A stretch of DNA of 47,796 bases, counting the filler, from Jimgerdemannia flammicorona (taxonomy: Eukaryota): the NCBI GenBank assembly GCA_003990765.1. It is 2 parts of 2 records of this genome, joined end to end, with 100 filler letters (N's around TTAATTAATTAA, not from the genome) between each part and the next. Parts side by side here need not be neighbours in the genome. Positions count along the whole stretch, not along the records: positions 1 to 23,852 come from RBNJ01001052.1; 1 more part is not named here. The stretch is one strand, 5' to 3'. Numbering within the stretch: the first letter of the stretch is position 1; each line of letters begins with the position of its first letter. Below the pieces are notes generated by a model. The model saw only the letters and a program-made list of their open reading frames with translations, searched no databases and was not told the DNA's origin. The translations under genes were made by a program, and so were the position numbers. Of this stretch, positions 1,287-37,933 are shown in pieces.

Positions 1287-2863
1287 TGTAATAGTGACCC
1301 CAGAATGATGAAATCAGTACAGGAGACAGTCTTTCCTTGCAAGCAACCAGATCAGAGTACAAGAAGATTATATAGCATATGAGATGAGCAATGATGACTA
1401 ACTGTGAGTCATTGTAACCACAGTACAAGCATCCTGAGGAATATAAAAGAAGGATCAAGGAACTGTAGTAGCAGCAACCAACAAGACCCACTAATCCCAA
1501 AATAGCTCAAAGACTTATTACAAATAAAATACCTGCTGCTCACCAAACCTCAAGGTCAAGGAACCACTAAGATATCTTAGTTGAAGAAAGGATGTTCCAA
1601 GACATCAGAAGAGCTATGAGGACCTGCTCAAGAAGGACTCCTAGTGTCAATCTGGGTACTGGTGACCCTTATCACTATATTCTCTACTACCATGAAATGG
1701 AAACAAGGATCACTATTACTACCAAATACCTCCAAATGTGGCAGAAGTATGAAATAGGAAACCTTCTCTGCTGAGAGTTCCCACAGACCAGTACTCAAGA
1801 GCTACAAGATGCCACTCCTATAGATATATGCAATATGAGGACAGCTAAGAAGATCCATCAGATCTTCAGGCATGTACCATAGTTGATCCCCAACTTGGAG
1901 TATATTAGAGTCTCAGATTTCAGAGACCTATTATCCCACCATATCAATACACTAGAAGCCAGAGTGGCTACAGAAGTGCAGTCCACTATCACTCTCAATA
2001 GTGATGAAGTAAGAGACTTCTGGCATCCTATCCTCCAGGACAACTCAGACCAATTCCTGCAAGAATTGATCTCAGTATTCCAAGACCCAAGCATCCAGGT
2101 TAGACCCCCCAACACCCCATATTTGTCCTCTATTTTGTAGAAGAGAACCTCATAGACTGGAGTGCTCCAGAACTCCTTCATGCTGCTGAATGTGATGACA
2201 TTATTGACAATGATGTCATCTCATGTGACATAGGCAAGACATGCGATGAAGTACATGAAGTATGCAAAAATAACCTATGTGATAATAATGATGAGACAGA
2301 TGAGACATTTGCAGACTTTATCTCCTTTAAAGACATCCTGATCTCTGATGATAAAGCCTCTATAGTCTTGAACATTCTACTCTAAGTCTCTTGGTTACAC
2401 TGAATAATGCCAGTATAGACATTCTGATGTAACACTGAATAATGCCAGCACTGGTATTCAGATGTGATACCAAATTATATCAGTATCCTGAATCAGTACA
2501 ACCATCAGTACTGACCCTAGAACTTAGCAGTTTTTCCTGTTCTGGCATTTTATTTTAGTTATTGAAATTTATATTTAACTTCATATCTTAGCAACTATTG
2601 AATTATATTTTGTATAAATACTCCTTTTATTTCCTCTGAAATAAAGTCAGCCAATTCAGTTCCTCTCAGTGCAATTACACACACTTCCTTACAAGTAATT
2701 TAAGAGATAACAAGACAGTTTAAAGATAAGAAGTTTGAGGACTATAAGACCTAGGGAAGGTACTCCAATAAGAACTTGCTTGTAACAAACTTGAGTTAGT
2801 CTAAGAGATATACCTTGAAGAGAATCTGGTGTATTTGAAGGACTCAGTGACCACTATGTGACA
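1287..2863 (+). repeat. Element A 5' LTR (1577 bp)
   Basis: TGTAATAGTGACCCCAG...CCACTATGTGACA; collinear with 8603-10144; has one extra ~35-bp tandem unit near 2397-2466. Confidence 0.95.
1529..2385 (+). pseudogene. LTR-encoded accessory ORF, 5' LTR copy (disrupted)
   Basis: Same protein as 8845-9702; ATG mutated to ATA, several stops, and a 1-bp loss in the poly-C near 2105; ends ...FADFISFKDILISDDKASIVLNILL*. Confidence 0.8.
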
Positions 2864-2866
2864 ACT

Positions 2867-2880
2867 TGGTGCCCATTGGC
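2867..2880 (+). promoter_or_regulatory. Primer-binding site of element A
   Basis: TGGTGCCCATTGGC, 3 nt after the LTR end; the cognate tRNA is not assigned. Confidence 0.75.
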
Positions 2881-2989
2881 TGTTGATTCAAGATGAATCC
2901 CTCACTTTCAAGCTGAAAAACGAACAACCCCCACAACAACTACCCTGACTACAAGAGTCACTCCTGCAAGAAGTCAAGACAAGATGGAA

Positions 2990-3900
2990 ATGTGTCCCCC
3001 CACATTCTATGGATATACTACTGAAGAGTCAATCCTGACCTTCATTGAAAACTTTGAACAATTCATCACTGCATGAGCCCTCAGTGTGGATGTACAATTA
3101 GCCCTTCTACCAGTCAGCCTCAGAGGACCTGCCAGAGACAAGTTCAATGTAGCCACTATTGCTGATAATGGTGCAGCTAAACTTGCCAATATGAAGGCCT
3201 TTCTCAGAACAATATATTATACTGAAGAGATCAAGCAAGCTCTCAAGGATCAACTCAATACTATCTGCCAGGGACTTAGTGAAGATCCCAACTCATTCTA
3301 TACCTGAATCTGCCACTAGATTGTCCTGGCTGACTATAATGATGCCCTCAAGAAACAAATAGCAGATTCAACCTTCCTTAAAGGAGTTCACCCTGAAATT
3401 GCCCTAGTAATCTGGTCTACTCCAGCTGCACTGACCCTTGATCAGAAAGTGGTCTTTGCACAGAGATATTGGACTGCCAGATATCCTGCTAAACACTCAA
3501 TAGAGAAAATAACTGGCATCAAGATAGAGCTATCAAAGCCAACTAGTATCATACCTGCCACAGTTGTAAACAGACAACCAACCCCACCTACCTTCAAGGC
3601 AGCCAAGGCTGACCCAGTGGAAGAACTTGTCAAGCAGTTTACTGAGATGACTGACACCTTGATGATGTTGTTAGAGAAGTTTGAAGTGCCAACAGGAGAC
3701 CAGTGCAGTGATTTGCAGCTGTTACAGAAGAATACAATATCACATGCTTCAGATGTGGAGAAGAAGACCACTTTGCAAAGAATTGCATGACCAAAACAAG
3801 ATGCAAAGCCCAACCAAGTAATGCTAGCAGAACCAGAGAACAAACCAATGCAGTAGTCATCAAGGATATTGGTGACACTGATGATAAAGAATACTATATG
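2990..3900 (+). pseudogene. gag: Element A gag (capsid plus CCHC zinc knuckle)
   Basis: PPTFYGYTTEESILTFIENFEQF...LRGPARDKF; knuckle CFRCGEEDHFAKNC at 3745-3786; stops and frameshifts. Confidence 0.85.
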
Positions 3901-4409
3901 GAGCTTGAATTCTACCCTGCTACTGAAGGTACCAGAACCTAGTCCAAGCCCTATGACAGGAAGAGCAACAGCAAGCCAGTTGGAAGACTAAAGAAGACCC
4001 CAGCTGTCACTATTCAAAGTGAGACCCAACCCAAGGAGATTGATCAAGATATGGAGTTAGATAAAGCTATCTGTCAAATTATTAAAGGCACTACTCCAGT
4101 CTCAGGAGAAAGTGAGAGCAAGAAGGAACAGAAGCTGCACAAGACCAAGATGCACCAGATATCTACAAGGATCTCAAGTAACAGAAGCTGCCAAGACCAA
4201 GATGCACCAGATATCTACAAGGATCTCAAGGAACAGAAGGTCAATGCTACTTTTGGACAATTAGCTGAAGTCTCTGCCTTCAGACAATAATTGAGAGTAG
4301 GACTTGTAACTACTGCCAAGCATCAAGAGTACAAGATTGTAGAAGCTCACAATATATAAGAAGAATATTGAAAACTCAGATGAAGAATCCAAAGACCAGT
4401 GCAAGACAT

Positions 4410-4770
4410 CAGCCTATACCCCATGTCAGATCGAAGACTGTATCTTTGATACCATCATTGATACTGGTGCTGGAGGATGCCTCACGAGCAAGGAGGCCAT
4501 TGACCACCTAGGTTGGGATATTGAAGAGTCCATCAAGATGGTCTATGTTATAGCAGATGGTACATGAGCTATCCCCCTTGATAAAATCTGAGAAGTCCCC
4601 ATCAAGATAGGAGGAACTACCATCCCAGTAGACATGATTGTTATAAGCACTACCAACTATGACATTCTCATTGACAACCAATGGCTTCACAAGACCAAGG
4701 CCATCATTGACCTCAATGCCCAGAATATATAGATCAACTATAGAGGAAGAAAGGTATGAGTCTCTATTAA
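4410..4770 (+). pseudogene. Element A aspartic protease
   Basis: IIDTGAGG (DTG at 4460-4468) and a downstream YDILIDNQWL motif. Confidence 0.85.
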
Positions 4771-4884
4771 TGTCCACAAAAGAGTCCTACCAGACATGGA
4801 GGAAGAAGATGAAGAGGACACAGAGGTCTTCATGCACTTGGTGAACAAGAACAAGAACAAGACACCTAAGCTCACAGATAAGCA

Positions 4885-5010
4885 GTGGTATAACAAGATC
4901 ATTGATAGCTATGCCCCTCAAGGAAGATGCCCCCATAGTACTAGGATGTACTGCTCTGAACACCTGAATGACTGCTGGTCCTGCATCAGTGAAGTTAGGA
5001 AAATCTGTCA
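4885..5010 (+). other. Cys/His-rich module in element A polyprotein
   Basis: WYNKIIDSYAPQGRCPHSTRMYCSEHLNDCWSCISEVRKI; homologous to 37760-37885 (-). Confidence 0.7.
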
Positions 5011-5110
5011 ACAGAAATATAAGCAAGAAGCCACCAAAGCAAAAAGGAAAGCTAAAAAAGATGACCAGTCCCCAGAGCTTCAGCCTGACAGTGACAATGA
5101 GGAGGAATAA

Positions 5111-5536
5111 GAATCAGACATCACCCTCAAGGTCAAGAAGTTTTACCCCAAAGTCAAGATTCCAGAATATAAGACTGAAGGAGCCATAGAAATAGACCTT
5201 GTCAGCATTCAAGATGCTACCCTCAAACCACAGACCACCACTCTACTTGGCACTGGAATTGGAGTCAAGCTGCTAGAAAACCATGCTGAAATTATTAAGA
5301 CCAGGAGCAGTCTGGCCAAAAGCAAAATCTCAGTTGAAGGAGGAGTAATTGACCCTGATTACACTGATAAGATCTTCCTCATAGTCAGGAATCACAACCC
5401 CACCACCCCATTAAAAGTCAAGAAGGATGACAGGATTGGCCAGATGCTGATCCACGAAATCAAGAAGCCCAAGATCATAGAAGCCATTGAACTCATCAAG
5501 ATCAAGAGAGGAGAACAAGGCTTTGAATCTACTGGA
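5111..5536 (+). pseudogene. dut: Element A dUTPase domain (between PR and RT)
   Basis: All five trimeric dUTPase motifs are recognisable: GAIEIDL, RSSLA, GGVIDPDYTD, DRIGQM, RGEQGFESTG. Confidence 0.92.
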
Positions 5537-5719
5537 AGAGGAGTCTATGCTACTACCAAGATTACCAAACTTGGGCATAAGAAAGACAAGCACCAGAATA
5601 AGCATATATATATAATTGGAGAAAACTTTCCCCTAGAAGAACAACTTCTCAAGATCCTATATTAGAACAAAGGAGTACTTGCTACAGACTTCAGGAATAT
5701 CCACAATCAAGAACCTAAG

Positions 5720-7056
5720 TACTACTATGAAGTTGACACTGGTGATACTAAGCCCATCTGCCAGAAGGCCAGACCCATACCACCTGCTTACAGAGAATGG
5801 CTGTAAGCAGAACTCAAGAAAATGGAAGAAGCTAGAATCATCAAGCAAGCTATCAGCCCCTGGGTCTTACCCATTGTCCTTGCTCTGAAGAAAGGAAGCA
5901 AGCCTGGAGAGTTTGCATCAAGACTCTGCATTGACTACAGAAAGCTCAATACTATTACCAAGAAGAATAGGCAGCTCTTGCCAAATATTCAAGAAATCCT
6001 TACCACTCTTAGAAGTGAAGCCAAATACTACACTATCTTGGATCTGTTCTCAGGCTTCCATCAGATTGGTCTCACTTAAGATACCAGTGAGAAATCAGCT
6101 TTTATCTCACCTGATGCCACCTATATCTACCTGCGAATGTCATTTGGAATGTGCAATGCCCCAGCAAGTTTTCAGTGAATGATGAACAGAGTCTTCAGCA
6201 ATGAGATTGGAAAATGGCTCTTTGTCTATATTGATAATGTGATCATCTTCAGTAACACTACATGGGAACATGTCAATTATATACAGCTAGTCCTCAAGAA
6301 GCTCAAGGAGCATGACCTTTATATCAAGCCTAAGAAATGCAAGTTTGTGGCTCAGAAAATTACCTACCTAGGACACCTCATCAATCAGACTGGAATCCAC
6401 ACAGACCCTATGAAGATTGAGGCTGTTGCAGCTTACCCAAAATCCAGAACAACTATAGAAGTCCATGTCTTCCTTGGACTGGCCAGCTACTATAGAAGAT
6501 TCATCAAAGGATACTCCAATATTGCAGCCCCTATCTACAAGCTACTGAAGAAGGAGACCAAATTCGAATGGACCAAGGAGCACCAAGAAATCTTCAATGA
6601 ACTCAAGACCAGGCTGACCCAAGTATCTATCCTCAGAAGACAAGATTGGAACCTAGAATTCATCCTGCAAACAATGTGAGTGCTATAGGACTTGGAGCAG
6701 TCCTAGCCCAGAAGAAAGATGGACATAAATATGTTATCTCCTATGCAAGCCAAGGTACCCATAGAGCAGAACAGTACTATGAGTTATGCAAGCTCAAATG
6801 CTTAGCAGTAGTTTGGGCAGTAGATAAGTTCCACTACTACCTAGCTAGGAAACACTTCACCATTGAAACAGACCATTCTGCTCTTGCCTGGTTATTCCAC
6901 ACTCTGAACCCCAAAGAAATATATGTCAGATGGATCTACAGGCTGCAAGAGTATGACTGTACTGTCAAGCACCACTTAGAAAGAACCAACATCAATGCCA
7001 ATACACTCTCAAGGACACTCCAAAATACCCCCATCAAGACTATTCAATATGAATAA
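5720..7056 (+). pseudogene. pol: Element A reverse transcriptase and RNase H
   Basis: SPWVLPIVL, RLCIDYRKLN, LDLFSGFHQI, FVYIDN (6227-6238, mutated YxDD), FLGLASYYRRFI, IETDHSAL, NINANTLSR. Confidence 0.95.
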
Positions 7057-7059
7057 AGA

Positions 7060-8238
7060 GCTATACTATGGATTAATTAGCTATCTTGGGCAGCAGAAGA
7101 TGCCCAACCACTTTGAACCCTGGACAATCACCATCATCAACCAGACTTAGAAATAGTTTGAACTAGACAACACTATACTCAGAAAAGAAGGAAAGCTAGT
7201 AATACTCAAACACAAGAAGTAATGAAGGAAGTACACAAGCAAGGACACCTAGGAGGAACCAACATATATAACAAGGTAAGAAGAACCATATAGTGGCCTA
7301 AGATGAAAGAAGACCTGCACCAATTTGTCAAAGAGTATGACAAGTACCAAAAACAGAAATAAGATCAGCAAGACCAGGCACTCAGGTCATCAAGAATTGA
7401 GTCTATCCCCTTCCACCACATTGTAATGGATATCATTAGGCCACTACCAGTAACATTATCAGAAAACCACTATATTATAGTTATTGTAGACCTCTTCACC
7501 AAATAGATAGAGGTAGGAGTATTACAAGAAGCCAATGCCCTCTCTATAGCTGACTTCCTGTACCAAGAAATCATCTGCTGCTATAAGATGCTGAGGCAAA
7601 TCACAACAGACCACAGCACAGAATTTGTCAATAGATTCTATGAGATAATGTATCAGAAATACAAGATCCAGCACATCAAGACTACTGCATACCATCCACA
7701 AGAAAATGGACAAACAGAGAGAACCAACAAGACCCTTAAGAACATTCTGGCAAAGATTTCAGAGATATATGAGAATTGGGATAACTATCTCCCAACTGCC
7801 CTCTCTATCCTATAAGACATACAGTTACAGAATACACACTTTACCACAAGGAAACTGCTCTTTGGAGATGAAGATTCTGATGGAACCTCAGCCACAAATC
7901 TAGACCTAACTTGGAGACAGGTTAATGTAGAAATCAGGAGACTATACCAAATCAGGAAGAAGGCTAAAGATTACATTATCAAGTCATAAGTGCTGACAAG
8001 AAAGAATACAGAAAAGAATCATAAGATCCTAGAACCCATCTGAATCAGAGAAAAGATCCTACTGTATTGAAATATGTTAGAAGTCTCATGATTACCAAAA
8101 CTGAAGCCCAAATGGGAAGAACTCTTTTATGTGCAAGATATCAAGAGAACTACCTTCTGGCTTAGAAAAATCTCAGGGACTATACTGCCTACCACAGTAT
8201 ATAGAAACAGACTCAAGGAGTACCATGAACCTATATAA
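7060..8238 (+). pseudogene. Element A integrase (no chromodomain seen)
   Basis: H..GH zinc-finger remnant, MDIIRPLP, ITTDHSTEF, TTAYHPQENGQTERTNKTL, KLKPKWEE (GPY/F region). Confidence 0.9.
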
Positions 8239-8592
8239 GAGAAGCAAAACATGATGACCACCTATGAGGTTCTAGTTCATGAATCATAACAGCATGTCCC
8301 ATGACCAGTAGGCTATCTGTCTGGGCCATTCTCTAAGAGATATGGCACTAGCAACTACTCATCTATGAGACTTTTGAAGCCAGAGGAGTTCAAACCATCA
8401 ACTGATTGGTCAAGATCAGAATCAGGCCCTTGCTCTATATGATGGGAGCAACTCTTCACCATCATGCCAAAATACAAAGAGAAGATACCAGCCTATAAAC
8501 ACCACTTTTCGACCCCTTGCCAGAGGTTATGGGATCAGCAAATTTTTCAGAACTAGACTAATGAATAAGAATGCTCGAGAAGATCCTTATTC

Positions 8593-8602
8593 AGGAGGAA
8601 GA
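8593..8602 (+). promoter_or_regulatory. Polypurine tract of element A
   Basis: AGGAGGAAGA directly before the TGTAAC start of the 3' LTR. Confidence 0.8.
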
Positions 8603-10144
8603 TGTAACAGTGATCCCAGAATGATGACATCAGCACAGGAGACAGTCTTTCCTTGCAAGCCACCAGATCAGAGTACAAGAAGATCATACAGCATACAAGA
8701 TGAGCAATGATGACCAACTGTGAGTCATTGTGACCACAGTACAAGCATCTTGAGGAATATAAAAGAAGGATCAAGAAACTACAATAGTAGCAACCAACAA
8801 GACCTACCAATCCCAAAATAGCTCAAAGACTTATCACAAATGAAATGCCTGCTGCTCACCAAACCTCAAAGTCAAGAAACCACCAAGGCATCTCAGTTAA
8901 AGAAAGGATGTTCCAAGACATCAAAAGAGCCATGAGGACCAGCTCAAGAAGGACTTCTAGTGTCAACCTGGGTACTGGTGACCCTTATCACTATATCCTC
9001 TACCACCATGAAATAGAAACAAGGATCACTATTGCTACTGAATGCCTCCAAATGTGGCAAGAGTATGAAATAGGAAACCTCCTCTGCTGGGAGTTCCCAC
9101 AGGCCAGTATTCAAGAGTTACAAGATGCCACTCCCATAGATATATATGAAACAAGGATAGCTAAGAAGATCTATCAGATCTTCAGATATACACCATGGTT
9201 GATCCCCAACTTGGAGTATGTTAGAGTCTCAGATTTCAGAGACCTGTCATCCTGCTATATCAATGCACTAGAAGCCAGGGTGGCTACAGAAGTCCAGTCC
9301 ACTATCACCCTCAATAGTGATGAAATAGAAGACTTCTGGCATCCTATCCTCCAGAACAATCCAGACCAATTCCTGCAAGGATTGATCTCAGTATTCCAAG
9401 GCCCAAGCATCCAGGTTAGACCCCCCCAATATCCCACATTTGTTTCCTATTTTGTAGAAGAGAACCTCATAGACTGAAGAGCTCCAGACCTCCTTTATGC
9501 CACCAAATGTGATGATGTCATCAGCAATAATATCATCCCACACAACATATGTAAGATGTATGATGAAGTGTGCAAAGTATTAGAAAACAACCTACATGAT
9601 AACAATGACAAGACAGATGAGATGTTTGCAGACCTCATCTATTTCAAAGACATTCTGACATCTGATGATGAAGTCCCTATGGTCTTGAACATTCTGCTCT
9701 AAGTTCCTTGGTTATACTGAATAATGCCAGCACTGGTATTCTGATGTGACACTGAATTATACCAGTATTCTGAACCTATATAACTATTAGTACCGACCCT
9801 AGAACTTAGCAGTTTTTCCTATTCTGGTATTTTATTTTAGTTATTGAAATTTATATTTAGCTTTATATCTTAGCAATCATTGAATTATATTTTGTATAAA
9901 TACTCCTCTTATTTCCTCTGAAATAAAGTCAGTCAATTCAGTTCCTCATAGTACAATATACACACTTCCTTGCAAGCAATCTAAGAGATAACAAGACAGT
10001 TTAAAAATAAGAAGTTTGAGGATTATAAGACCTTGAGAAGACACTCCAATAAGAACTTGTTTATAACAAACTTGAGTTAGTCTAAGAGATATACCTTGAA
10101 GAGAATCTGGTATATTTGAAGGACTCAGCGACCACTACATGATA
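8603..10144 (+). repeat. Element A 3' LTR (1542 bp)
   Basis: TGTAACAGTGATCCCAG...CCACTACATGATA; TATAAAA at 8758-8764 before the ORF; TATAAATA at 9895-9902 and AATAAA at 9922-9927. Confidence 0.95.
8845..9702 (+). pseudogene. LTR-encoded accessory ORF (~285 aa, unknown function), 3' LTR copy
   Basis: 210-aa ORF 8845-9477 continues in frame past one TGA (TGG in the 5' LTR copy) to ...FADLIYFKDILTSDDEVPMVLNILL*; homologous to 32791-33618 (-). Confidence 0.85.
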
Positions 10145-10148
10145 ATAG

Positions 10149-11480
10149 ATATATTCAATATACTATACTTAGCTATAGCTCTAAATCTGTATAAATATTC
10201 CAGAGATTTGAGTGAATAAACCTTAGTCTGAAAGCTGAAAAAAAGCAACAGTTAATTATCTAATATACTTAGGAGAAATAGCTGCTGAAAGCTACTTAAT
10301 CTAAAAAGAATTATAATACTTAGGAGGAATATATACTGTAAGCTACTGCCAGAAGTTAAAAACTTTATTTCTTTCTACTATAGTCTACTTTTTAATATAA
10401 AGAAGTCTGTTACTAATTTGGTATATGTATCAGACTAAGTCTGAAGCTTTACTTTCTTTCTTAAGAATAAAGAAGTATTCTTATCAAAAACTCTCAGATC
10501 TAACTTATAAACAATTCTCAGTCTGATTATCTTAGAATACAAGTATGATATCTTTATCTAGTATAAGAATCTGAAAGTAATACTTGGACTGTACCTCTAT
10601 AACAGATAGAAAAAACTTAGTACTTTCTCACAGAGCTCAGAACTTAAGGCTGATAGTTATCTCTAAATATCTATAATATATTAATTCTATCAGAATATAG
10701 TTTTATACTATTTATTAATAATGTGTAAAATATATAACTTATATATATTATTAATAAAATTACTTTTTCTATTTATTATAATAAAAGTTATAAGGCTAAG
10801 ATATTCAAGATAGTGTACTCAGTTTGTATTTATAATTTCTACTAAATATTTACTATATTAGTCTCACTATATATATATATACTATAATTATTCAAATAGT
10901 AACTAGATAGTAACTCAACTTATCTAAAATACTTCAAAGATTCAAGTAAATAAACCTTAGTTCTAAAAGTTAAAAAAAAAAGGAAATGACTAGTCTGTCT
11001 ATAATATACTTTGAGATATATATATATTTGTTAAGAGTTACTCAATTTAAGGAAAAAATTGTTATACTTAAGAGAAATATCTACTTAAAAGTTATTATTA
11101 AAGAGATTATGAGCTTTATTCTCTTTTCTACTCTAGTTTATTTTTCAATATAAGGATGTCTACTGATTTTGATCTACTTATCAGATTAAGTCTGAAGAAC
11201 TTTAAGATATCTGCTATATTTTGGTCTACTTGTTAGGTTAAGTCTGAAGATTTGTCCAAAGTTTAAAGAAAGAACTTAACTACTATTTGAAGAAATCTAC
11301 CAAATTACTATATTGTACAGAATCTATATATATGAAGAAACCCACTGAAATTATCAGCATTATGTAAATAAGAGAACTTATACTTTTAAAAACCAACTGA
11401 ATATTTTATTACTTTTAGACAAAATAACTGAGAGCTTAAGTTAAGCTACACTGCTATTCTATTTTGTAATTTACAATAGA
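10149..11480 (+). mobile_element. Two heavily decayed LTR relics related to the element B LTR
   Basis: GAGTGAATAAACCTTAGTCTGAAA near 10210 and a variant near 10945 match 31381-31405; 11400-11470 matches 41440-41510. Confidence 0.65.
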
Positions 11481-17073: not shown

Positions 17074-18926
17074 ATGTCAGCCCCTAACTCTACACCACAT
17101 TCAGAGCAGGCAGATTTGTTAGCGATAAGGAGAAACCTAGTCAATGACAAGTAATAGATATGAATCAATCAATTCATTATTTAGTTTAGTGGTATGGGAT
17201 CATGTTTTCAAATTTGTTGTGGTTCAGAGTTGCTCATAGAGGCAGCAGAAGTTGAGAACATGCTCGTGCTGCAATATATCTATGCCGCATCTTCACTCAA
17301 GATCCAGGCTGAGGGTAAGAGGGTTTTTATTTTGATTTAATTTTGGGAGTATAAAAACTTGCATTGTCATGGGCTTATTGCCAAAGTTCCAGTAGAGTTT
17401 GACAATGAGAAGCGCAAGTATTACCAAGCAGAGTTGGTCAGGGGATGGAAGAAAACAATCCATAGGTGCGAGTTCGAATTTTTCTCATTTGTGATTGTCA
17501 TGGCTTATTTTAATGGAACTTGACATTTTCATATAGACTTGAGCTGATATTTTAGCATCTATCGTGAAGAAATGCAACACTTACACGTTGTGAACCAGGT
17601 GCTTGTAGGTGTTGGTGCTGAATCTTAGTAAGTAAAAGAACTCATAAATGGTTGCCCAGACCAGTATGGAAAATCGTTTTTTTCATACTGTATCATTTTC
17701 TCAGCTTCGGAAGACCAAATTTCCCCGTGAACTGGTTCTATAAGGAAAATGGTATTGATTCTGGCAAGACACTGATGGTCCTTGCACAATTCGTCCCGGA
17801 TACTTTGTGGCGCTTCTTGACTTTCGAATGGGGTCTGATCGACCAAGAAATACTGGAATTGATGCCAAATTTCATCGCCGCCTACATAGATGGCAAAACA
17901 TCTCCATTGGGCAAGATACCAGAACCGCCGTTTTATAAAGACCTCACCCAGCTTTACACAGACATCATGAACGGTTTGACGGAAAAAATGTTCGAGCTGG
18001 GTAAAAAGGATGTGAACAAAGTATTTAAGGAGACCGGAGAAGACGCTGAAAACTCACAGTTGCTGGGCAACAGGGGAATCCCGAAAATAACAGATGTGGC
18101 AACGGCAAAGGCGGCCCTTCAACAAGTTATTGATCAAGGTAATTATTATTTGCTTGCATGCTTGAATCTGGAATACCCTCTCTTCTTCTCTCTATTTTTT
18201 CTTTTTTACATTTTTCTTCTTATATGTTTATATCTTTTTTGAACACTCAAGGTGAAGGCATTGGGGCCACTGACGTGAATGGGCATTTTCAAAAGTTCAA
18301 AAGCATATGGGATGCTTTTCGGGCTGAGTTAGTGATTGATGAGCATTTCCGGTCAGCTCAGAATGTGATGGCGAATCCTCAGCTGCGGTATCATTCAGAG
18401 GTGTCTTTGAGAAAAACTCAACCCCAGAGCAAAAACAGGCAGTGAGCGAAAACCCGCTCAATATCAGATGTATTCATAAGGTATGCTGCTACTATATTAT
18501 TTTAATTTTATTTTATTTTTATTTTTTTGGTTATGTAATTATAACCGCATTGGCTTGAATCAGAGTGCTGATTGCATATTCTGGTTTTCAAGATCCCAGA
18601 TGGCACCATGGCACACAAATTTTTGAATCTACTTTGTGAAGCCTATGAGTTTTTAGTGATCTGGCTCAGGCAGATATACACTCATAAAGTTACTTGCAAA
18701 TGAGAATTTCATACTATCAGGCAGCTTGCATTCCTCCCATATATGTCTGAGGTCATTCTGCCATTATTGGAGATAAGATGGAAATTCTCTTCCCTATATT
18801 TGTTATTTTTAAAATATAATTAATAGGTCTCTCCTCCAATGTTTACAGATCATTACCAAGATTGTTGTTTGGCCATCAGGTACCTTGTTCATGTTCACAA
18901 TTGCCAGACAACATGCTAATTTCCAG

Positions 18927-23852: not shown

Positions 23853-23952
23853 NNNNNNNNNNNNNNNNNNNNNNNNNNNNNNNNNNNNNNNNNNNNTTAA
23901 TTAATTAANNNNNNNNNNNNNNNNNNNNNNNNNNNNNNNNNNNNNNNNNNNN
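23853..23952. other. Artificial 100-bp assembly spacer
   Basis: 44 N + TTAATTAATTAA (stops in all six frames) + 44 N. Confidence 0.95.
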
Positions 23953-24168
23953 CCAGTCCTCCTTGAGTGCCCTCACCACCGTTCGACCCTCCAAAGGCCC
24001 CCATCCCCAGGCCATAACCCCTCCCCACTTGCTGCCAGCCGAAAGCCCCAGCTCCCCCCGACCCAGTATGCCCGTCGGAACTCTTGCTTGAAGACATATT
24101 GCTAGTACCTTTACTCCTAGTTGTGTCGAGAACTGTTGCTTGAAGTTTTGTGTAACGTGAATTATACA
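23953..24168. mobile_element. End of a CpG-intact insertion (probably an LTR) abutting element B gag
   Basis: Retains CpG, ends ...AATTATACA, then switches abruptly into mid-gag, CpG-poor sequence. Confidence 0.45.
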
Positions 24169-25020
24169 GGAGAAAGGTGGAAATTGCAGTCTTGAGGAAT
24201 CTCTCAGATGAAAGAAAAATCACTATCTATAAGGCTCAGCTCAGAGAACCAGCCAGAGGAATTTTCCATCAAACAGTAAACAACCCAGATTTAGAACTGG
24301 CGAGACAGATACAAGCAGTAATGTCCTATAAGCTAGAATATCAGGCCATGGTCCACTGGCTCATTGAAAAGTATGCAGGAAACGAAACCTGCCACAAGGC
24401 TCAGGAATCCATCATGGGGATGAAGATGAATCTTAGAGAATCACCCAGAGCCTTCTTTATAAGAATCCAGAAGAGAATGCATACTGCCAGGTTCAATGCC
24501 ACCAACTAGGACATCATAGGTCCAATGACCTTCATGAATGGAATTCCCTCAAAAATTGCTCAGCATGTCTGCACCCTAGGTATTAGAAGGTCTGAAGAGC
24601 AAGTAGATGCAGCCCAAGAATTCTTTGATGTCAGACAAGGAACTACTTGGAGTAATTATGACAAGAAAGAAGATAAAGAAGACATCCTGGTTAAAGCCCT
24701 ACAAGGACTCCTTCAAGGATAAGAAAGAACTGAAGAAAGAAGGCTAGCCAAGAAAGGAAAGAAGGACAGAAGTGAAATCCAAGACCTTAGCTCCAAGTTG
24801 GATCAATTGGTTGGACAGATTGAAAAACTCACTAAATGTGAAAATTGGAGCTACCAAGACAATAGAGGATACCCACCACAGAGGAGCCAAGGTTATCCAC
24901 TCAGAGATAACAGAAGTTATTAATAAGAAGAGAGAAGATACTCTGTCCAAGATAGAGCCCAAGTCCAATGCTTCCACTGTAGACAATTCAGACACTATGC
25001 CACTGAATGTGATAACAAAA
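24169..25020 (+). pseudogene. gag: Element B gag with CCHC knuckle
   Basis: KAQLREPARGIF, ESPRAFFIRI, TFMNGIP; knuckle CFHCRQFRHYATEC at 24969-25010. Confidence 0.85.
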
Positions 25021-25619
25021 GAAGTAACCGAAGGGATTCAGAATCATTAAACCAAAAGAATGAAACTTGGTACAAAAAGACTGAAGCTCATCCTGTTGAA
25101 GATTTCAAGGAAGCAAGCAATAGTGAAGACTACAGTGACCTAGACTTGTACCCCACCAAGGTTACTACCCAAAAAACAGTATACCCAGCAGAGAAGAGGA
25201 AGAGACCTATAGGAAGGCCATCCAGGAACATCAGCAGAAGAATTATCCAAGAATAAGATGAAGAACATGAGGAAGAACAGGTAGAAATACCTCCCCTCAC
25301 CCCCTCACCTTTTGTTCCTGAGACAAATAAGTTGTCACCAGAAGATGAAGAAATGGAACAAGAAGAACAGGAACCTGCTGCTCCAAAGCCCAAGAAGAAG
25401 TACACCCCAAAGATCATACCTAGAGATATCTACAATGAAGCCTGGCAGAAGATCCAAGAGACCAAGATAGAAGTTCTCCTCCTGCAGTTCCTGTAACTAT
25501 CACCAGCTGGAGTCCAAAACAAATTACTAAGAACCACCAGATCTAGCACTGGCTGAGTCCCAATCCCACAGCAAGAACCAGTTCCCATCCCTGTTCAGAC
25601 AGCTGAAAGACATATCAGC

Positions 25620-25980
25620 ACCTACTTATATGGAGATATTGGAGAACAAAAGGCAAAGATCCTCATAGATATAGGAGTAGCTATCTGTATCATTACCAAA
25701 TGGTTCCTAGATACCCTTCAATGGCCCATTGATAGACCATCTAACCTCAGCATCATAGTAGCAGATGGAGCCCAAACTCAACCCCTTAGAGAAGTATGAA
25801 ATATCACTATATTCTTTGGACACATCCAGTTCTCTATCCCTAAAGCTGTTATCACCGAAGCTATCACCTATGATATGATTCTTGGTACCAACTGGATGAA
25901 GGAAATGAATGCAGTTATTGACATTGGCCAATAAGTACTCAAGTTCAATTACTGAGGTAAGAAATATAGATTTAAGATAA
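25620..25980 (+). pseudogene. Element B aspartic protease
   Basis: ILIDIGVAICII (mutated DTG), IIVADG, YDMILGTNWM. Confidence 0.82.
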
Positions 25981-27272
25981 CTAGCTATGAGCAATTAAAG
26001 AAGAAGAAGAAGGTCACTATTTAGGAAGAATATACTAGTAGTGAAGAATCTACCACAGAAGAAGAGGAAGAATCTGAAGATAGAAATGATCTCAGACTCA
26101 ATCCCCAAATTAACCTGATGGATGACAGATCAGAAGATAATGTGTGGGTTAAGAACACCATCCCCATCACCATTGGAGCTATTGCAGGAGAAGCCAAAGG
26201 ATGTCCTATCTGCTTCAAGAGACACAAGTGTCCTGAGCACTCCTCCAAGATCATGGAAACAAGGAAATCACCTGGCACAGCCTGCCCAGAGTGCAGAAGG
26301 AAGAAGAAGAAATACAGACATGTTCCAGAAATACCTGCAGCCGAAGCTGCAGAAGTACAAGCAATTTGGAGTCAAGAATCATCTGAGGAAGAAGAAACTC
26401 CTAATCAAGAAGTCCCTGAACAAGAAGCACCTGAAGAAGAAGAAGTCCCTGAACTCATTCTCTGGGATAATTCTCATTGGACACCACCCAAGGACAATGA
26501 CCCTTGGAACATGGAAGAAGAACCCAGTACAATCACCATTATCCCAAAGAAAGAAACTCACCAAGAGAAGGCTTTTCGGCTTGGAAGGTGTCCACACCAA
26601 ATGGTCTTCCACTCTCTCCGAGACTACTGCTATCAGTATCATCTATTGGATCAATAAGAAAGATAGAGACCCCAGAGATCAGAACTCCCAACTACACTTG
26701 CACAGTCAACTACCTTTCAAGAAGTTACCACAAGGTTACAAAGTCAATTTAGAGGACAAAGCTTCTTCACCCAGAGAGAAATATATCCCTTGTCTACTCT
26801 TCTACCCACTTATGACCAAGATGGATATCTATTCCCAAGGCAACAAGAGATTAACAGCCAGAAACACTATTTTTGAGCAATGGGATATTACAACCATAGG
26901 AGATACCCTGACTGCCAAGACTACAGACATCAGAAGATTCACCTCAGTCATGATGTTGCAGTCCATACTTTAAAGAGAGGAGATAATAGAGGCCAGAACT
27001 GAAAAAGCTAAACCAAGAAGCCAGGAAGAAGAATCCTCAAGATCTATGATTTGGGAGAAGACATCCTAGCTCTCATCAGACATGCAATCTGCCAAGGATG
27101 GGCAGAAGATGCCACCAACTTTATGGAAGCTCTAGACCCTAAAGGAAGAAGGGGAATCAACTATCTTCGAGACCCCTCTACTGGAGCCAGATGGCCACAC
27201 CTCAACCTCAGAGCCTAGAGGCTCTCTACTAGTGGAGCCTCAGCTTTAGGATAGCCTGAACTCAGCAAGGAC

Positions 27273-27680
27273 ATTGCCCAGTATGCCCTGCTACATCCCA
27301 AGGCCAAACCCCCAACCAAAGCCCACCCAGAGGATGTAGGATATGATCTTCACAGCCTGGAGGATGAATCTATCAAACCTGGAAAAACCTTCATGATCAG
27401 AACTGGATTAGCCATGCAGCCACCCCAAGGAGCTTACATCCAGCTGACCTCAAGGTCCAGACTTGCCAGACAAAGAATAACTATGGAAGGAGGAACCATT
27501 GACCTGGGATATATAGATGAAATCAAGGTCATCCTATACAACAGCAGTGCAGAAGGGTACCAAATCATTAGAGGACAGAAGATTGCCCAAGCAGTCTTTA
27601 TGAAAGTCAAGACCCCACAGTTACAAGAAGTCTCTGAACTAACTGAAGGAACAAGACAAGCCAAGGGATTTGGAAGTTCA
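27273..27680 (+). pseudogene. dut: Element B dUTPase domain (between PR and RT)
   Basis: PTKAHPEDVGYDL, RSRLA, GGTIDLGYIDEIKV, GQKIAQ, RQAKGFGSS; the frame is open across the domain. Confidence 0.93.
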
Positions 27681-28229
27681 GATAGGAAGGAAGTATACCT
27701 CCTTCAAGTCAACTATCTTAAGAGAAATGTTCCTCAGCAAGTATACCAGCAACCAGTCAGACTGTACAAGAATCTTATCCTGGAGCCCAGAGAACAAACA
27801 ACCTTCGAAATCTTTGCACCACCCAACCTCAGAAACCTTTTCTTTGAACCCAAGGAAGATATTCCCCATCTGGACATAGAGGGACACACATTCTCTAACA
27901 AGATGAACCCAGTACACTCCCAAGCAACCAACCAAAGTTAAGAGACCATCATCTTACTGAAAGGAACTATCATAGGACATCTGGTGCCTTTACTCAACCG
28001 AACTCATAGGGAAGTTTATGAACTAAATCTATCGGGAAATAGCAAAAGGTCCCAGAAAAAAGGAAAGGCCCCTCTGTGACCCAAGAGACAGTGAAGCCTT
28101 CCATCAACATTGGAGAAGAATTGACACCTCAACAACAACAATAACTAGTAGAACTTCTCAACAAATATCAAGATATCTTCACTACTGATTATGGCAATCT
28201 GCCATACAATCCATCATATCATTACAGCA

Positions 28230-29490
28230 TAAATACAGGAAATATAACACCCATCTGGCAGAAACCCTATAGAATACCCTATCACTTGAAAACATTCAAA
28301 AAGGAGTACATTCAAGAACTCTTAGACAATGGGGTCATCTGACCCTCTTCCAGTCTCTGGGCTAGCCCTATATTCATTGTATCAAAGAAAGGAGGATAGA
28401 GACTTTGTGTGGATTACAGGAAACTCAATTCAGTCACTAAGAAGGATGCTTATCCTTTGCCCAGAATCGATGACCTTTTGGACCAGTTACAAGATACCAG
28501 ATACTTCAGCAGTATGGACCTCTTCACAGGATTCCATGAGATCTCCATGGACCCCAAGGACACTCCAAAGACAGCCTTTCTTGTTCTAGAAAAACTGTTT
28601 GAATACCTCCGAATGCCCTTTAGACTCTGCAATACACTCCCCACCTTTCAGAGGATGATGAATTCAGTCTATGCCCCCTTGATCCACCACTGCCTGATTG
28701 TATATATGGATGATTCCAACATTTATTCAGCAAATTTTGAAGAACATCTGCACTATCTAGAGGAATTCTTCAAGCTCACTCACAAAAACCACTTGAGGCT
28801 GAATGCAAAGAAATGTTACTTTGGAAAACAGAAACTTGAATTCCTTAAATTCATAGTTTCAAAAGAAGGAACTCATGCAGACCCAAAGAAAACTGAGAAG
28901 ATCAACAATTGGCCAGTACCCAAAACTCTGAAAGAGACACTATCATTCCTGATGCTAGTATCCTACTACAGAAGGTTTATCAAAGACTTTGCCCAAATTG
29001 CTACTCCAATCTGAATCCTTCTCAAGAAAGAAGTACCATTCAAATGGACAGAAATGCAGGAAAAAGCCTTCAGAGAGCTTAAGAACCACATGACTATGGC
29101 ACCAATCCTTATGCACCCCAATCTACAGAAGACATTTATACAGATGCTTCTAAAGATGGCCTTGGGGCAGTTCTGGCCCAAGAAGGACTTGACCAACAGC
29201 ACCATGTGATAGCTTATGCAAGCAGAGCTATCAATCAGCAGCAGATGAACTATGGTAGCACTAAACTGGAATACCTTGCAGTCATATGGGCAGTCACTCT
29301 GTTCAAACATTACCTCATTGGAAAAAGATTCACCCTGATCACAGACTATATAGCTCTCAAATAACTATTCAACTACAAGGAACTCACCAGAATCCTAGCC
29401 CACTGGATCCTTATCCTTCAGGATTACAAAATCACCATCATTCACAAAGCAGGAAAAGCCCACAACAATGTTGATATACTTTTCTGCCAG
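28230..29490 (+). pseudogene. pol: Element B reverse transcriptase and RNase H
   Basis: WASPIFIV, LCVDYRKLN, YPLPRIDDLL, VYMDD, LVSYYRRFI, YTDASKDGLGAVL, LITDY. Confidence 0.95.
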
Positions 29491-29559
29491 CCTCAATGAA
29501 CCAGAAGAAGGGTGTTCTAAGGAACTATACCTTAAAGGAAGCTCCTCAGACTATCAAGG

Positions 29560-30560
29560 AATAAGAAGATCTCATCCAACAAGAACATCAGAAAGCCCAC
29601 CAAGGACAGACAAGCACAGAAGACAAGATTCGAAAACAATATCAACATTGGCCCCACCTCAGAACCCAAGTCCGAGACATCATCCAGAAATGTGACACCT
29701 GCCAGAAGTACCAAGGAAAGAAGAACTATCAAGCCCCTCTGCAACCAATTCCCCCACCCACTCACATCTTTTAAAAATAGGGAGTAGATGTAATTAGACC
29801 TCTACCAGTTACACTAAGAAGGAACAAATACATCCTTATATTTGTGGAATATCTGACCAAATGGCCTGAGGCTTTTCCAATGGAAATCACAGATGCCTTA
29901 ACCATTGTAGGCCTCCTCCATGGACTCGCACTCAGATATGGACCCCCAGAAGAACTTATCTCTGACCGAGGCACAAAATTCATCAATAACATAATCACAA
30001 GTAATACTCAAATTCACAAGATCCATCTCAAATGAACTACATCATACTACCTCCAGACCAATGGCATGACAGAAAGAATGAACCAGACCATTAAGAAAAG
30101 ACTTGCCTAAGTCAATTCTACCAATTGAGACCTCTGCTTACCTGAGATCTTATGGGAAATTCAGAATACTCCTGCTGCCTCTACTAAACAAAAGCTATTC
30201 AAAATGATGTTTGCCAAGAAAACCAGAACTGCTGACTATGAGAACCTCAGAAAGCTTCTTGAAAAAGGAGATCAGCTGTGAAATGAAGCTTGAATTCAAA
30301 TTATCAAGGCTCAGGAAAGACAAAAGAAGTATTATGATCAGAAACAAAAGGATCAGAAGATTAAGATTGGTAATCAAGTCCTAGTTTAGAGAAGTATGAT
30401 AGAAACAAACTTTGCTGCTAAACTGGAACTGAAATGAGAAGGACTATATCTTGTACACAACATCAGAGAAACCAGCATCTATATAAGAAGTATGGATGGA
30501 CATATCTTGAGAACTCCAGTCCACATCAATTGCCTCAAGATATACCTGTACAAACCATAA
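29560..30560 (+). pseudogene. Element B integrase
   Basis: CDTCQ, GVDVIRPLP, EYLTKWPEAFP, LISDRGTKF, PQTNGMTERMNQT, KLELK*EGLY. Confidence 0.9.
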
Positions 30561-30576
30561 CTCAGAGGATAGATCA

Positions 30577-31062
30577 ATGCCTCCAGACTCTTATCCTCAG
30601 CTCTTTCCAAGCTCTGCTAATTCCCCTGCCCCAGTTTACCAACTTGAAGAAACCCCCATACAATTTATCCAGAAGCATCAAGAGAACCTTGCTATTGCCC
30701 AGAGGTTACTTCAGATCCACCATCTACAAGTCTTCTATAACATTGGACAGCTATTGACAGAACAACCCTATATAAGGAGCCTGGCCAGAATCACTCTCAG
30801 AGAAGCAAGAACTGTTGAATGAATCTATACCCTGTATAATCGAAATGTTGGAGCCCTGGTGCAGACTCATTTCTATCTCAATGATATCTATCAGATGAAT
30901 GAGACCACCTTTTAGAGTATTCTTCAACAAGTAGACATCCTATTCCCTGAAGAACAAGAAGAGGATCTAGAGCCAGAATAAAGTGACCCTGATACAGACA
31001 ATGAAGATGATGGAACAGGTATAGATGCAGAAGCAGCTTATGCTTATTGGGATGATGACTGA
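30577..31062 (+). pseudogene. Element B extra 3' ORF (~160 aa with read-through of stops), remote relative of the A/C accessory ORF
   Basis: LQVFYNIGQLL...EARTVE*IYTLY...FYLNDIYQMN followed by an acidic tail, located between IN and PPT. Confidence 0.6.
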
Positions 31063-31101
31063 AGAACAGTCTGAGACAGACTATCCTTCAGTAGGGGCTG
31101 A

Positions 31102-31953
31102 TGTAACAAACTACAAAATATAGCAATCTCGAAACCCAACCAGGTGATATAAATATTAGCATAGCATAGTAACCAGCAATCATTGCTATGGAAAATGTAT
31201 AAATAACTCAGATAGCTAAAGAAAGGAAACACCCTGACAGTGGCTGTCACCCTGATAGTAGCTGTTACCCTAACAGTGGCTGTCACCCCAACAGTGGATG
31301 TCACCCCATAAATAGCATCCTATAGTTAGCCAGATAGCAACTAGATAGCAACCACAATATATAAATTATCCCAGAGATAAGAGTGAATAAACCTCAGTCT
31401 GAAATTGAAGCAAAAGACAAGTCTGTCTACCATACTTCGAGAGGAACTCTACAGCTACTGCTAGGAGATTGTGAGCTTATTTCCCCACTCTAGTCCACTT
31501 TCCAATACAAAGCTTGAAGATTTTGCTGCCAAGTTCGAGTGAAGAACTTTGTCACTTTTGGAATTATTATTATTGGTTCGCTTGCCAGATAAGCCTGAAG
31601 TTTGCTGCCTAAGTTCAAGAAAGAACTTTACCACTGTTTCCTAGTTAAAGCTGCCAATTCAGGAAGAATCTGTGCCATCCAAGTTATTTCCCAGAAGCCT
31701 GCCAATTCCAGAGAATCTGCATCATCTGCCATTTTCAAGTTATCCATATTTCCAGAAGAGCCTGACTCAGAAGAACCTATGCCATCTGAGTATTATTCCA
31801 GAGAGACTGAGTCATCTGCAATATCTAAGTTATTCATTATTTCCAGTGAGCCCAAGAAGAACCCACTGCTAGTATAATTCCCATTAAGAAGAACCCATGC
31901 AGTCCTCTATTCCCAGCAAGCCAAATTGAGTTATCTGCCAAATTATCAGAATG
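31102..31953 (+). repeat. Element B 3' LTR, left part
   Basis: Starts TGTAACA after the PPT; TATAAAT at 31360 and AATAAA at 31386-31391; resumes after 41126. Confidence 0.8.
31229..31308. repeat. Four 18-bp tandem units with an internal dyad (CCCTGACAGTGGCTGTCA)
   Basis: ccctgacagtggctgtca ccctgatagtagctgtta ccctaacagtggctgtca ccccaacagtggatgtca. Confidence 0.85.
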
Positions 31954-32779
31954 TGTAATAACTCTCACTTCTACTCCTCTCTTATCCTTTGGATAATTAG
32001 AGAAGTGGACTATTACTTAGCAACTTAGTACACAATGTGTATCAAGAAGCCTTCAGTTTGAGGAAGTGCTCACTTAAAGTAGTTGTAATGGCAGTGCCTT
32101 ATCTTTCAAAGGTCTTTCTCTAGTTTGCCTTCTGTTTCAAAGGTCTTTCTCTTGTGCCCTATTTTGAGGGTCTTGTTCTTTGCTGTACACAGACTGAATT
32201 TGCCTTGGAATTCAGGTTCAATGAGTTTACTTAAGTCTTTGGAGATTTATATACCAGCCTCAGTTCTGGCAGAAGTTAGCTAGGCTTCTGGAGTTTAGTT
32301 AGAAATACTAGAGTCACTTAGGTATCATTACTAAGACTCAGGGAAATGTGTGTGTGTGGGGGGGAATTTGATTCTTATATCAAGGACTGAACTAAAACTG
32401 CTTTATTTTAAATAGAAACTGGGGGGTATTTATACAAGTTGGTCTACGATTTCTGACTAAGTATGAGTGACTAATTTGGTAACTATAATGAGGTTTGTGA
32501 TCGCAATCTTTGTCAGATAATTTTTGATAAAAAATATCTTTGTGATCAGGACCTCAATTACTAGGCAATGATCAGCAGCTATGGCAACTGTTGCTGCGGC
32601 ACCGGTTGTTAGGGATAAGCTAAATATCATTTTCCATGTCATTCGTTTGCATCGTTTGTTCATTCATCACTTATTATTCATATGATATGCTCAATCATAC
32701 GATGACATCATTGTCGGGTCATGTGATCGTTCATGATTGCTTATTGCATCCTATCTGTTCACTCATTCATTCTATTACA
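31954..32779 (-). repeat. Element C 3' LTR (826 bp)
   Basis: Matches 40297-41121; minus-strand TATAAATA at 32434-32427 and AATAAA at 32407-32402. Confidence 0.95.
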
Positions 32780-32792
32780 TTCTTCTCCCCTT
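32780..32792 (-). promoter_or_regulatory. Polypurine tract of element C
   Basis: Minus strand AAGGGGAGAAGAA directly before the LTR; overlaps the stop codon of the accessory ORF. Confidence 0.85.
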
Positions 32793-33618
32793 AGAAATCA
32801 ACATCCTCATTGATTGAGAAATTGAGAACCAGGGGAGAGAAAGGTGGGGAATCCTCCTCAGGGTTGTTACCATCTTCTTCAGGGACAGGGGGGGTGGTTA
32901 CTGGTGGCTCGCTATCCAGGGTGGAGAAGTCAATGAGGTCTGCAAATGGTTCTTGTATTGGGATAGGTGCTGGTGTAGGAGTTCTCCATCTGATGCAGTT
33001 GGGGCCATCCAAGTAGAGTTCTTGGTCTCTGTGCCTGGGAATATCCATTCAGATAGGTGGTCCTTCAAAGAGATCAGAGAGGCCTTGGAGCCATTGGTCA
33101 GGGTTGTCATTTAAGAGGGGACTCCAGTGGGGCTCAATGTCAGTAGACTTGAGGGCAATCCAGGAGTTGGCTTCTTGGGCAACCTTGACTTCTAGGGCAT
33201 CGACCTTAGGGAAAGAGAGGTTCTGGAAGTCCTTCAGTTGTATGTAGTTGAGGTTGGGGATCATGAAGAGTACATGGCACATGATTTGATGGACCTTCTT
33301 GGCAAGTCTTTGCTCATACCTGTCTAGGTGAGTCCAGTTAGAGACCTGGTCTGTGGATAAGCCATTTGTATGTTGGAGAAGCTGGTGACCGATTTCGTAT
33401 TTGTGCCAGATTTCTAGGTGGCTGGTAGCAAGATAGGCCCTTTCAATAAGTTCATAGCAGTCAAGGACATACTGTCCTAGGTCTGGGCTGGAGAGGTTAA
33501 GGGCCTCTGAGTGGTGGTTCCTTCCTTGGATAGCAACCTGAATGTGTCCAAAGAGGCAGTCAACCTGGCTTGGGAGGGACTGGCTATGGTGGGCAGGTTG
33601 GTGGCAGGTGGTAGGCAT
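32791..33618 (-). pseudogene. Element C accessory ORF (~275 aa, unknown function)
   Basis: Track ORFs 33049-33699 and 32791-33048 are one frame split by a single TGA; likely start MPTT at 33618, about 65 nt after TATAAATA (33690-33683); homologous to 8845-9702. Confidence 0.85.
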
Positions 33619-34471: not shown

Positions 34472-34559
34472 ATAATCATTAATCCTAATTGGGGGTGGTG
34501 GTGGAATACTGGGTGTACTCAGATATTGTGGGGAAGTTGCAACTTATAGTTGACTTCAC

Positions 34560-37885: not shown

Positions 37886-37933
37886 ATCATCTTCCTTCAT
37901 GGTAGTAACCTTTTGACTGGAAGGTTTGTTGAT

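Follow-up and report, generated by a model that had tools for sequence, protein, structure and literature searches.

A probable accessory gene within the long terminal repeats of a decayed Ty3/gypsy retrotransposon from Jimgerdemannia flammicorona

In a 47,796-nucleotide stretch of DNA from Jimgerdemannia flammicorona (GenBank assembly GCA_003990765.1; two parts of this genome joined end to end by 100 filler letters, and here called the window), a Ty3/gypsy retrotransposon, element A, very probably carries a genuine accessory gene inside its long terminal repeats (LTRs). The open reading frame (ORF) of this gene sits between the 5' end of the LTR and a conserved TATAAATA/AATAAA block, and its two copies, at 1529-2385 and 8845-9702, both fall within the repeat, such that one is present in each LTR of A. 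The explanation that on balance we favour is that each of these LTRs holds a cassette of promoter plus ORF, most probably in the unique 3' region (U3). A preliminary description of this DNA had proposed a whole gene, with its own TATA box, inside the LTR; as an observation this is partly confirmed, and as an interpretation partly supported. Two features go beyond that description: the copy in A is dead, having acquired stop codons and decay resembling repeat-induced point mutation (RIP), and a homologue of the gene is found in a second retrotransposon, element B, outside the LTR.

Element A and the reading frame in its LTRs

Element A (1287-10144), though long dead, is complete as a Ty3/gypsy LTR retrotransposon, with paired LTRs, a primer-binding site (PBS) and polypurine tract (PPT), and the gene order protease (PR), reverse transcriptase (RT), RNase H and integrase (IN). 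Its features are as follows.

1287-2863, plus strand: 5' LTR, TGTAAT...GTGACA, a direct repeat with 8603-10144, with the PBS adjoining its 3' side
1529-2385, plus strand: accessory ORF in the 5' LTR, decayed, with the start lost, three in-frame stops and a 1-bp frameshift near 2105 (from tblastn with P0001-P0009, translation and LTR alignment)
2864-2882, plus strand: PBS region, ACTTGGTGCCCATTGGCTG, abutting the end of the 5' LTR
2883-8592, plus strand: internal region, with degraded gag, protease, dUTPase, RT, RNase H and integrase (from Pfam, tblastn with the B domains, and the list of ORFs)
8593-8602, plus strand: PPT, AGGAGGAAGA, directly 5' of the 3' LTR
8603-10144, plus strand: 3' LTR, a direct repeat, both ends of which are shared by contigs of the family
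8758-8764, plus strand: upstream TATA box, TATAAAA, 87 nt before the ATG, with an identical copy in the 5' LTR at 1442-1448
8845-9702, plus strand: accessory ORF in the 3' LTR, 285 codons plus TAA (9700-9702), interrupted by TGA at 9475-9477
9703-9894, plus strand: variable LTR stretch without coding sequence, reaching from the stop of the ORF to the core promoter (from LTR alignment, and contig joints and indels at 9702-9798)
9895-9927, plus strand: core TATA/AATAAA block, TATAAATA at 9895-9902 and AATAAA at 9922-9927, 27 nt from start to start
9928-10144, plus strand: presumed repeat and unique 5' regions (R/U5), placed by their position after the TATA/AATAAA block, and the best-covered part of the LTR in related contigs

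The boundaries of the LTRs, which are 1.54-1.58 kb in length, are supported by several independent marks. The pair (1287-2863/4 and 8603-10144/5) is 85.9% identical over 1579 aligned columns, and its ends are of the TG..CA type, starting TGTAA and finishing GACA, which a transition has changed to GATA in the 3' copy. Directly after the GTGACA of the 5' LTR stands the PBS-like ACTTGGTGCCCATTGG, with position 2864 onward reading ACTTGGTGCCC, and a check for a target-site duplication found the same four bases, ATAG, abutting both outer ends of the element. Between the LTRs, Pfam and tblastn matches place PR at about 4427-5029, dUTPase at 5111-5665, RT at 5807-6679, RNase H at 6601-7056 and IN at 7507-7815, with the dUTPase (PF00692, E 3e-21) sitting between protease and RT. 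No chromodomain was found in A by Pfam scan, nor by eye in the frames of 7750-8620, this being a decayed region whose frames were only partly covered by the Pfam scan.

The motifs that the preliminary description had listed in the 3' LTR are all correctly placed, namely TATAAAA at 8758-8764, the ATG at 8845, TAA at 9700-9702, TATAAATA at 9895-9902 and AATAAA at 9922-9927. Its claim that the ORF lies within the LTR, and is present in both LTRs, also holds, the PBS abutting the 5' copy and the PPT the 3' copy. The frame of about 285 codons was rightly given as to length and position, and it exceeds what chance would produce, but it is not open: the in-frame TGA at 9475-9477 divides it into 210 and 74 codons, at a column where every relative that covers it has tryptophan. 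A purine occupies position -3 of the accessory ATG in both A and B. There is, in addition, an out-of-frame ATG at 8841-8843, 4 nt 5' of the ORF ATG, which opens a short overlapping frame of about 31 codons; both this ATG and the start codon of the ORF read ATA in the 5' LTR copy.

A chance open frame, rather than a gene, is an explanation to which the breakage of the frame in every copy in the window might seem to point. It is nevertheless refuted, and can be given almost no weight: stop-free runs in the 3' LTR extend to 228 codons, a length that none of 1000 dinucleotide-preserving shuffles reached (maximum 180), and the frame has twelve homologues, down to 30% identity and with conserved motifs, as well as the homologue in B.

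Other copies of family A were sought in public sequencing data. The A LTR was found in 13 public runs, at up to 24% of sampled words; ten of these runs were labelled soil metagenome and three were labelled as one organism, with none recorded as RNA. Contigs of four runs, numbering 271-2457 short contigs per run, were placed on 7600-10400 at a likeness of at least 80%. Their summed depth drops at 10138 from about 2090 to 72. The three contigs that leave leftward at 8603 have mutually unlike upstream sequences, and a contig of one run that leaves at 10142 continues into the PBS sequence found after the 5' LTR of A, so it derives from another copy of the family. The depth over part of the ORF (8822-9479) is 2.1-3.7 times that over part of the internal region (7600-8539) in all four runs, although depth is not copy number. 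The ORF part at 9480-9667 is almost uncovered at this likeness, in keeping with the variability of the protein's tail, though this carries no weight as evidence alone. Together these contigs suggest that other family-A copies share both LTR ends, with the same start at 8603 and the same end followed by the PBS, a check that the preliminary description had called for, and that the ORF stretch behaves as LTR rather than as internal sequence.

These data also bear on the possibility that the 'LTR' has been mis-delimited, such that the ORF is internal, as is its homologue in B, and the upstream copy stems from a tandem or recombinant array. Recombinant LTR-internal-LTR arrays do exist. However, the repeat starts with TGTAA right after the PPT and has its CA-type end right before the PBS; the DNA upstream of the 5' LTR is an unrelated A+T-rich flank, without pol sequence before 1287; and in other members of the family the start at 8603 is found in different contexts, and the sequence passes at 10142 into the PBS. 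This alternative is largely refuted, and we regard it as very improbable.

The stretch just 3' of the ORF stop is less stable. A 35-bp unit (2397-2431; compare 9702-9798) is duplicated in the 5' LTR only, and related contigs show skips and back-joins in the 9702-9798 stretch, hence the number of repeats there varies across family A.

The accessory protein family and its homologue in element B

The accessory ORF of A finds six proteins (P0001-P0006), with which it is 66-86% identical by tblastn, while a profile search of 1.84 billion representatives gave five clusters, and a profile and word search of 5.8 billion clusters gave ten proteins. In total the family comprises twelve proteins, all on contigs of 567-1625 bp, and bearing names no more informative than 'hypothetical protein'. 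Three members are intact and full-length, these being P0001 (271 aa), P0010 (325 aa) and P0008 (342 aa), and their lineages are only 30-45% identical to one another. All four proteins starting at the family's own start (P0001, P0007, P0008 and P0010) begin with MP and a basic N-terminus. The conserved core contains the motifs W-x-EYEI, AKKIHQ-F-H-P, NPDQ-LQ and F-GP-I, and is followed by an acidic tail that varies in length yet stays in frame and returns to a conserved end, (V/I)LN(F/I), with the short hydrophobic motifs FADLIxF and VLNF conserved within it; in P0006 the tail is frameshifted.

The protein is acidic overall (isoelectric point 4.5-4.9), whereas its N-terminal 45 or so residues are basic, with 10 K/R against 2 D/E in P0001. 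In five family members the maximum 19-residue Kyte-Doolittle mean is 0.59-1.07, the usual threshold for a membrane span being 1.6; therefore, with no segment hydrophobic enough to span a membrane, the accessory protein is not Env. AlphaFold2 models built with four and with ten sequences had a predicted local distance difference test (pLDDT) score of 35.7 and 42.9, respectively, and were unusable, if mostly helical. The protein is predicted to be soluble and helical, with a basic head and an acidic tail, and a weak guess would make it a regulatory or host-factor-binding adaptor serving the element. Searches for relatives of other kinds were negative: there was no Pfam match beyond chance level at E values up to 1, and no PDB sequence match at E values up to 10; in the ESM Atlas, P0001 found nothing above 0.83 and P0010 no usable match; and profile comparison detected no similarity to the gag-like frames of B, or of a third element in the window. 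No longer or fused forms of the protein were found either, which is weak evidence. The family seems restricted to these retrotransposons, making it a candidate new class of retrotransposon accessory factor.

The homologue in B is placed differently, as the features of that element make clear.

31954-41121, minus strand: element B as a whole, a Ty3/gypsy retrotransposon that is complete and has a chromodomain
40297-41121, minus strand: 5' LTR of B, preceded by target DNA, with no ORF copy there
33683-33690, minus strand: TATA box of the B ORF, TATAAATA, 72 nt upstream of the ATG
32791-33618, minus strand: accessory ORF of B, 275 codons plus TAA, with one in-frame TGA (33049-33047), internal and in single copy
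32780-32790, minus strand: PPT of B, GGGGAGAAGAA, the 11 nt filling the gap between the ORF stop and the 3' LTR
31954-32779, minus strand: 3' LTR of B, 826 bp, without an ORF homologue, 90.3% identical to 40297-41121

Element B has CATTC at each flank, a target duplication of 5 bp without mismatch, carries ACTTGGTAGCAG at the place of the PBS, and has the order gag/CCHC-dUTPase-PR-RT-RNase H-IN-chromodomain, the last of these (PF00385, E 8e-11) at 34543-34319. Its accessory ORF (tblastn match 33618-32794) is 62% identical to P0007, 44% to P0008 and 33-40% to P0001-4. Lying in single copy between pol and the PPT and 3' LTR, it has the layout known as ORF3-type, which is that of B and not that of A.

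A and B are different Ty3/gypsy families. Their dUTPases lie on opposite sides of the protease (PR-dUTPase-RT in A, gag-dUTPase-PR in B), a chromodomain is recognised in B but not in A, similarity between their gag sequences is undetectable, and their shared domains are 40% (RT), 35% (dUTPase), 31% (integrase) and 29% (RNase H) identical. At 37% identity (E 6e-39), the accessory ORF is as conserved between the two as RT is. Nucleotide identity between the A and B ORFs is 0.43, 0.58 and 0.36 at the first, second and third codon positions, and 52 of the 87 identical residues are encoded by different codons. Codon-level conservation of the frame, which the preliminary description had made a test of its reading, is thus seen in these codon-position identities, and protein-level conservation in the core shared by the relatives.

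Outside the coding sequences, the core block of TATAAATA, 27 nt and AATAAA, with the same spacing in both elements, is the only part of A and B that aligns (score 46 against a shuffle mean of 28, z 5.1). All other A/B non-coding pairs had a z of at most 1.5, and comparison of the 242 nt preceding the ORF in A with the pre-ORF spacer of B, and with the start of the B LTR, gave z values of 0.2 and 0.7, with no signal of an ancestral layout. As the B homologue is outside the LTR, residence in the LTR is therefore a peculiarity of family A, not a property of the gene. The difference between A and B is which side of the PPT the cassette occupies, and the cassette itself (TATA, about 80 nt, ATG and about 280 codons) is, to judge by its sequence, a unit conserved in two families of retrotransposon at least.

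It could instead be proposed that the ORF began as a host gene fragment that the LTR took up by transduction, a passive passenger with no role for the element and decaying since its capture. LTR retrotransposons do acquire foreign ORFs, as described in the available text of PMC5408684, and the accessory protein has neither a recognisable retroelement domain nor similarity to gag. Yet an ORF and TATA box recur in two distinct families, with the ORF conserved to the same degree as RT, and three or more diverged lineages have intact forms. Moreover, neither the 5.8 billion clusters nor the 1.84 billion representatives yielded a cellular homologue that was longer or annotated, and all matches were on contigs of 567-1625 bp, as expected of repeats. 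Such an origin is consequently given little credence.

The decay of the copies has a distinctive signature. Alignment of the two LTRs of A shows 186 differing positions; transitions account for 170, and 109 of these are at CpA/TpG. The CpG observed/expected ratio over the window is 0.16, and at sites where the window has T or A, the related contigs mostly show C or G. Such changes are typical of RIP, or of a similar deamination process, and would suggest a fungal host.

The remainder of the window contains further retroelement sequence. A third Ty3/gypsy element, on the plus strand at about 24000-31900, has dUTPase at 27255-27938, RT at 28400-29011, RNase H at 29083-29361 and integrase at 29781-30032; its RT is 38-40% identical to that of A, it may have been cut by the insertion of B, and neither an LTR pair nor an accessory ORF homologue was found in it. 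At 45400-47778 lies part of a B-like copy (84% identity with 35796-38217), cut off by the end of the window, and pieces resembling the PBS and gag of A (43194-45061, about 65%) and an inverted B-like gag (41691-42645) complete a nest of retroelements. Two runs of 44 N (23853-23896 and 23909-23952), read as assembly gaps, are next to a 205-nt stretch that matches 42981-43177 in inverted orientation. A 206-codon open frame at 17622-18239 on the plus strand has a weak Ferritin-like match (PF12902, E 1e-4, just at the gathering score), and may be a fragment of a host gene.

Expression and propagation of the cassette

During standard reverse transcription, the PPT sets the left edge of U3. In family A the cassette is 3' of the PPT; it would thus travel near the 3' terminus of the genomic RNA, and each round would place a copy in both LTRs, so that the cassette would be duplicated at each transposition. 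The upstream TATA box would direct a capped transcript some 1.1-1.2 kb long, with its start near 8790 and polyadenylation following the AATAAA at 9922-9927; either LTR of an element, or a solo LTR, could be the source of this short ORF RNA. For the genomic RNA the predicted start is some 25-35 nt beyond the second TATA, level with the AATAAA or immediately 3' of it, and therefore the signal would be missing at the 5' end of the RNA and work only at its 3' end. Such a layout of the AATAAA is familiar from retroviruses with short R regions. Should the host be a fungus, with short introns, long-range splicing would seem a less likely route to the protein. That the ORF is in U3 and also transcribed from its own TATA box has, in our judgement, slightly less than an even chance of being correct.

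The upstream TATA may alternatively be incidental to a real gene in the LTR, with the protein made from a genomic-length or processed transcript; or that TATA may itself be the genomic promoter, in which case the ORF would lie in a very long R as the first cistron, in the manner of the plant ORF0/ORF1 upstream of gag. TATA-like strings are common in DNA that is 61% A+T, plant elements of the Retrosat2 type do have an extra ORF upstream of gag (available text of PMC3485330), and bdelloid ORF3s are said, in the corresponding text of PMC5408684, to be expressed from spliced messages. Against this, the distance from TATA to ATG is similar in two families (87 and 72 nt) whose surrounding non-coding DNA cannot be aligned. 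Furthermore, the genomic promoter of B must be within its ORF-less LTR, and A retains the homologous TATAAATA-27 nt-AATAAA block, while an R of about 1.15 kb would be exceptional. We therefore consider it unlikely that the TATA box plays no part in expressing the gene or serves as the genomic promoter.

Several points nevertheless weigh against a functional gene, transcribed from its own promoter within the LTR. Firstly, all three ORF copies in the window are broken, by one, one and at least four lesions, and the differences between the ORFs of the two A LTRs are spread over the codon positions at 15, 10 and 17%, a spread that therefore indicates neutral decay, with no constraint since insertion. 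Secondly, the intact proteins come from databases with an ascertainment bias, since gene callers discard frames that are not open. Thirdly, the presence of the ORF in the 5' LTR of other copies is deduced from short contigs and depth, with no contig running from ORF to PBS. Fourthly, it is consensus motifs that predict transcription, its start sites and the site of polyadenylation, which makes the assignment to U3 rather than R a provisional one. Finally, the weak guess as to function derives from composition, the structure models being poor (pLDDT 36 and 43). As the A copy is a fossil, the case for function therefore rests on its relatives.

A bolder extension of the LTR cassette is that it is a mobile retrotransposon gene, a unit of promoter and ORF that recombines between unrelated Ty3/gypsy families and, once in U3, remains intact in solo LTRs. 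This we think doubtful, but such movement between families, if true, would explain conservation like that of RT beside an unrecognisable gag.

Comparison with known systems, and consequences of a gene in the LTR

Genes in LTRs are a textbook peculiarity of a few retroviruses: sag is the 'LTR ORF' in the U3 of mouse mammary tumour virus (MMTV), a betaretrovirus, and nef and bet overlap U3. As with MMTV sag, the whole ORF of A is within the LTR, upstream of the core promoter, and in both LTRs. The resemblance does not extend to the protein, for which neither Pfam nor PDB gave a match to sag, nef or bet, the models being too poor for a fold search; sag is a type II membrane glycoprotein, whereas the A protein lacks a hydrophobic segment. 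Nor does it extend to the bearer, as A is an env-less Ty3/gypsy retrotransposon in a soil eukaryote with RIP-like mutation, rather than in a mammal.

Foamy viruses have an internal promoter for tas/bet. Among gypsy-like elements, the Tor elements of Oikopleura have an internal promoter, Penv, which drives their third ORF (available text of PMC4402516). The TATA boxes of A and B similarly suggest a promoter downstream of pol and a short RNA for the 3' gene, although the Tor and foamy virus promoters were mapped by 5' rapid amplification of cDNA ends or reporters, while those of A and B are recognised by their sequence motifs. Unlike either system, the putative promoter and gene of family A are wholly within the LTR, with a full unit in each.

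Extra ORFs (ORF3) between pol and the 3' LTR are frequent in LTR retrotransposons, and unrelated retroelements can have them in common, as in bdelloid rotifers (available text of PMC5408684). The layout of B is exactly that, and here too one ORF type occurs in two retroelement families; the sharing of this type by the families of A and B points to a modular, exchangeable cassette. Unlike the ORF3 systems of that text, the cassette of A is on the LTR side of the PPT, and the accessory family is none of the types it names (env-like, GDSL, DEDDy, CC and TM). A bears an ORF3-type accessory cassette that in one family came to lie in the LTR.

Among fungi, Ty3/gypsy elements with dUTPase are known from Postia, Phanerochaete and Tuber (PMC2864245), and as in these the dUTPase has variable positions in pol in A and B, with B also having a chromodomain; the descriptions available from that source do not report a gene inside the LTR. 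One of its figure legends marks an 'add. ORF' of unknown function in fungal chromoviruses. Other candidate precedents were rejected: Retrosat2 ORF0 is upstream of gag and not in the LTR (available text of PMC3485330), the 'LTR ORFs' of Talaromyces are pol frames, a preprint on Blumeria offers nothing beyond a generic sentence, and the U3 of crapaud in Podospora is variable, but non-coding and under 200 bp. In the full-text literature searched, to which most subscription journals do not belong, a protein gene within the LTR was not found for any Ty3/gypsy element, which falls short of proof.

If the layout of family A is functional, then each transposition doubles the gene, recombination between LTRs leaves a complete promoter-gene-poly(A) unit, and gene dosage scales with the number of LTRs, rather than with the number of elements. 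The pairing of A with B, in which the same cassette is found on either side of the PPT, is a natural experiment in how U3 swallows or releases a gene. Should the more doubtful proposal of a mobile cassette also prove true, hundreds of autonomous copies of a protein serving transposable elements would accumulate, outliving the elements from which they came, and that protein might, for instance, activate in trans, or counteract the silencing of repeats by the host.

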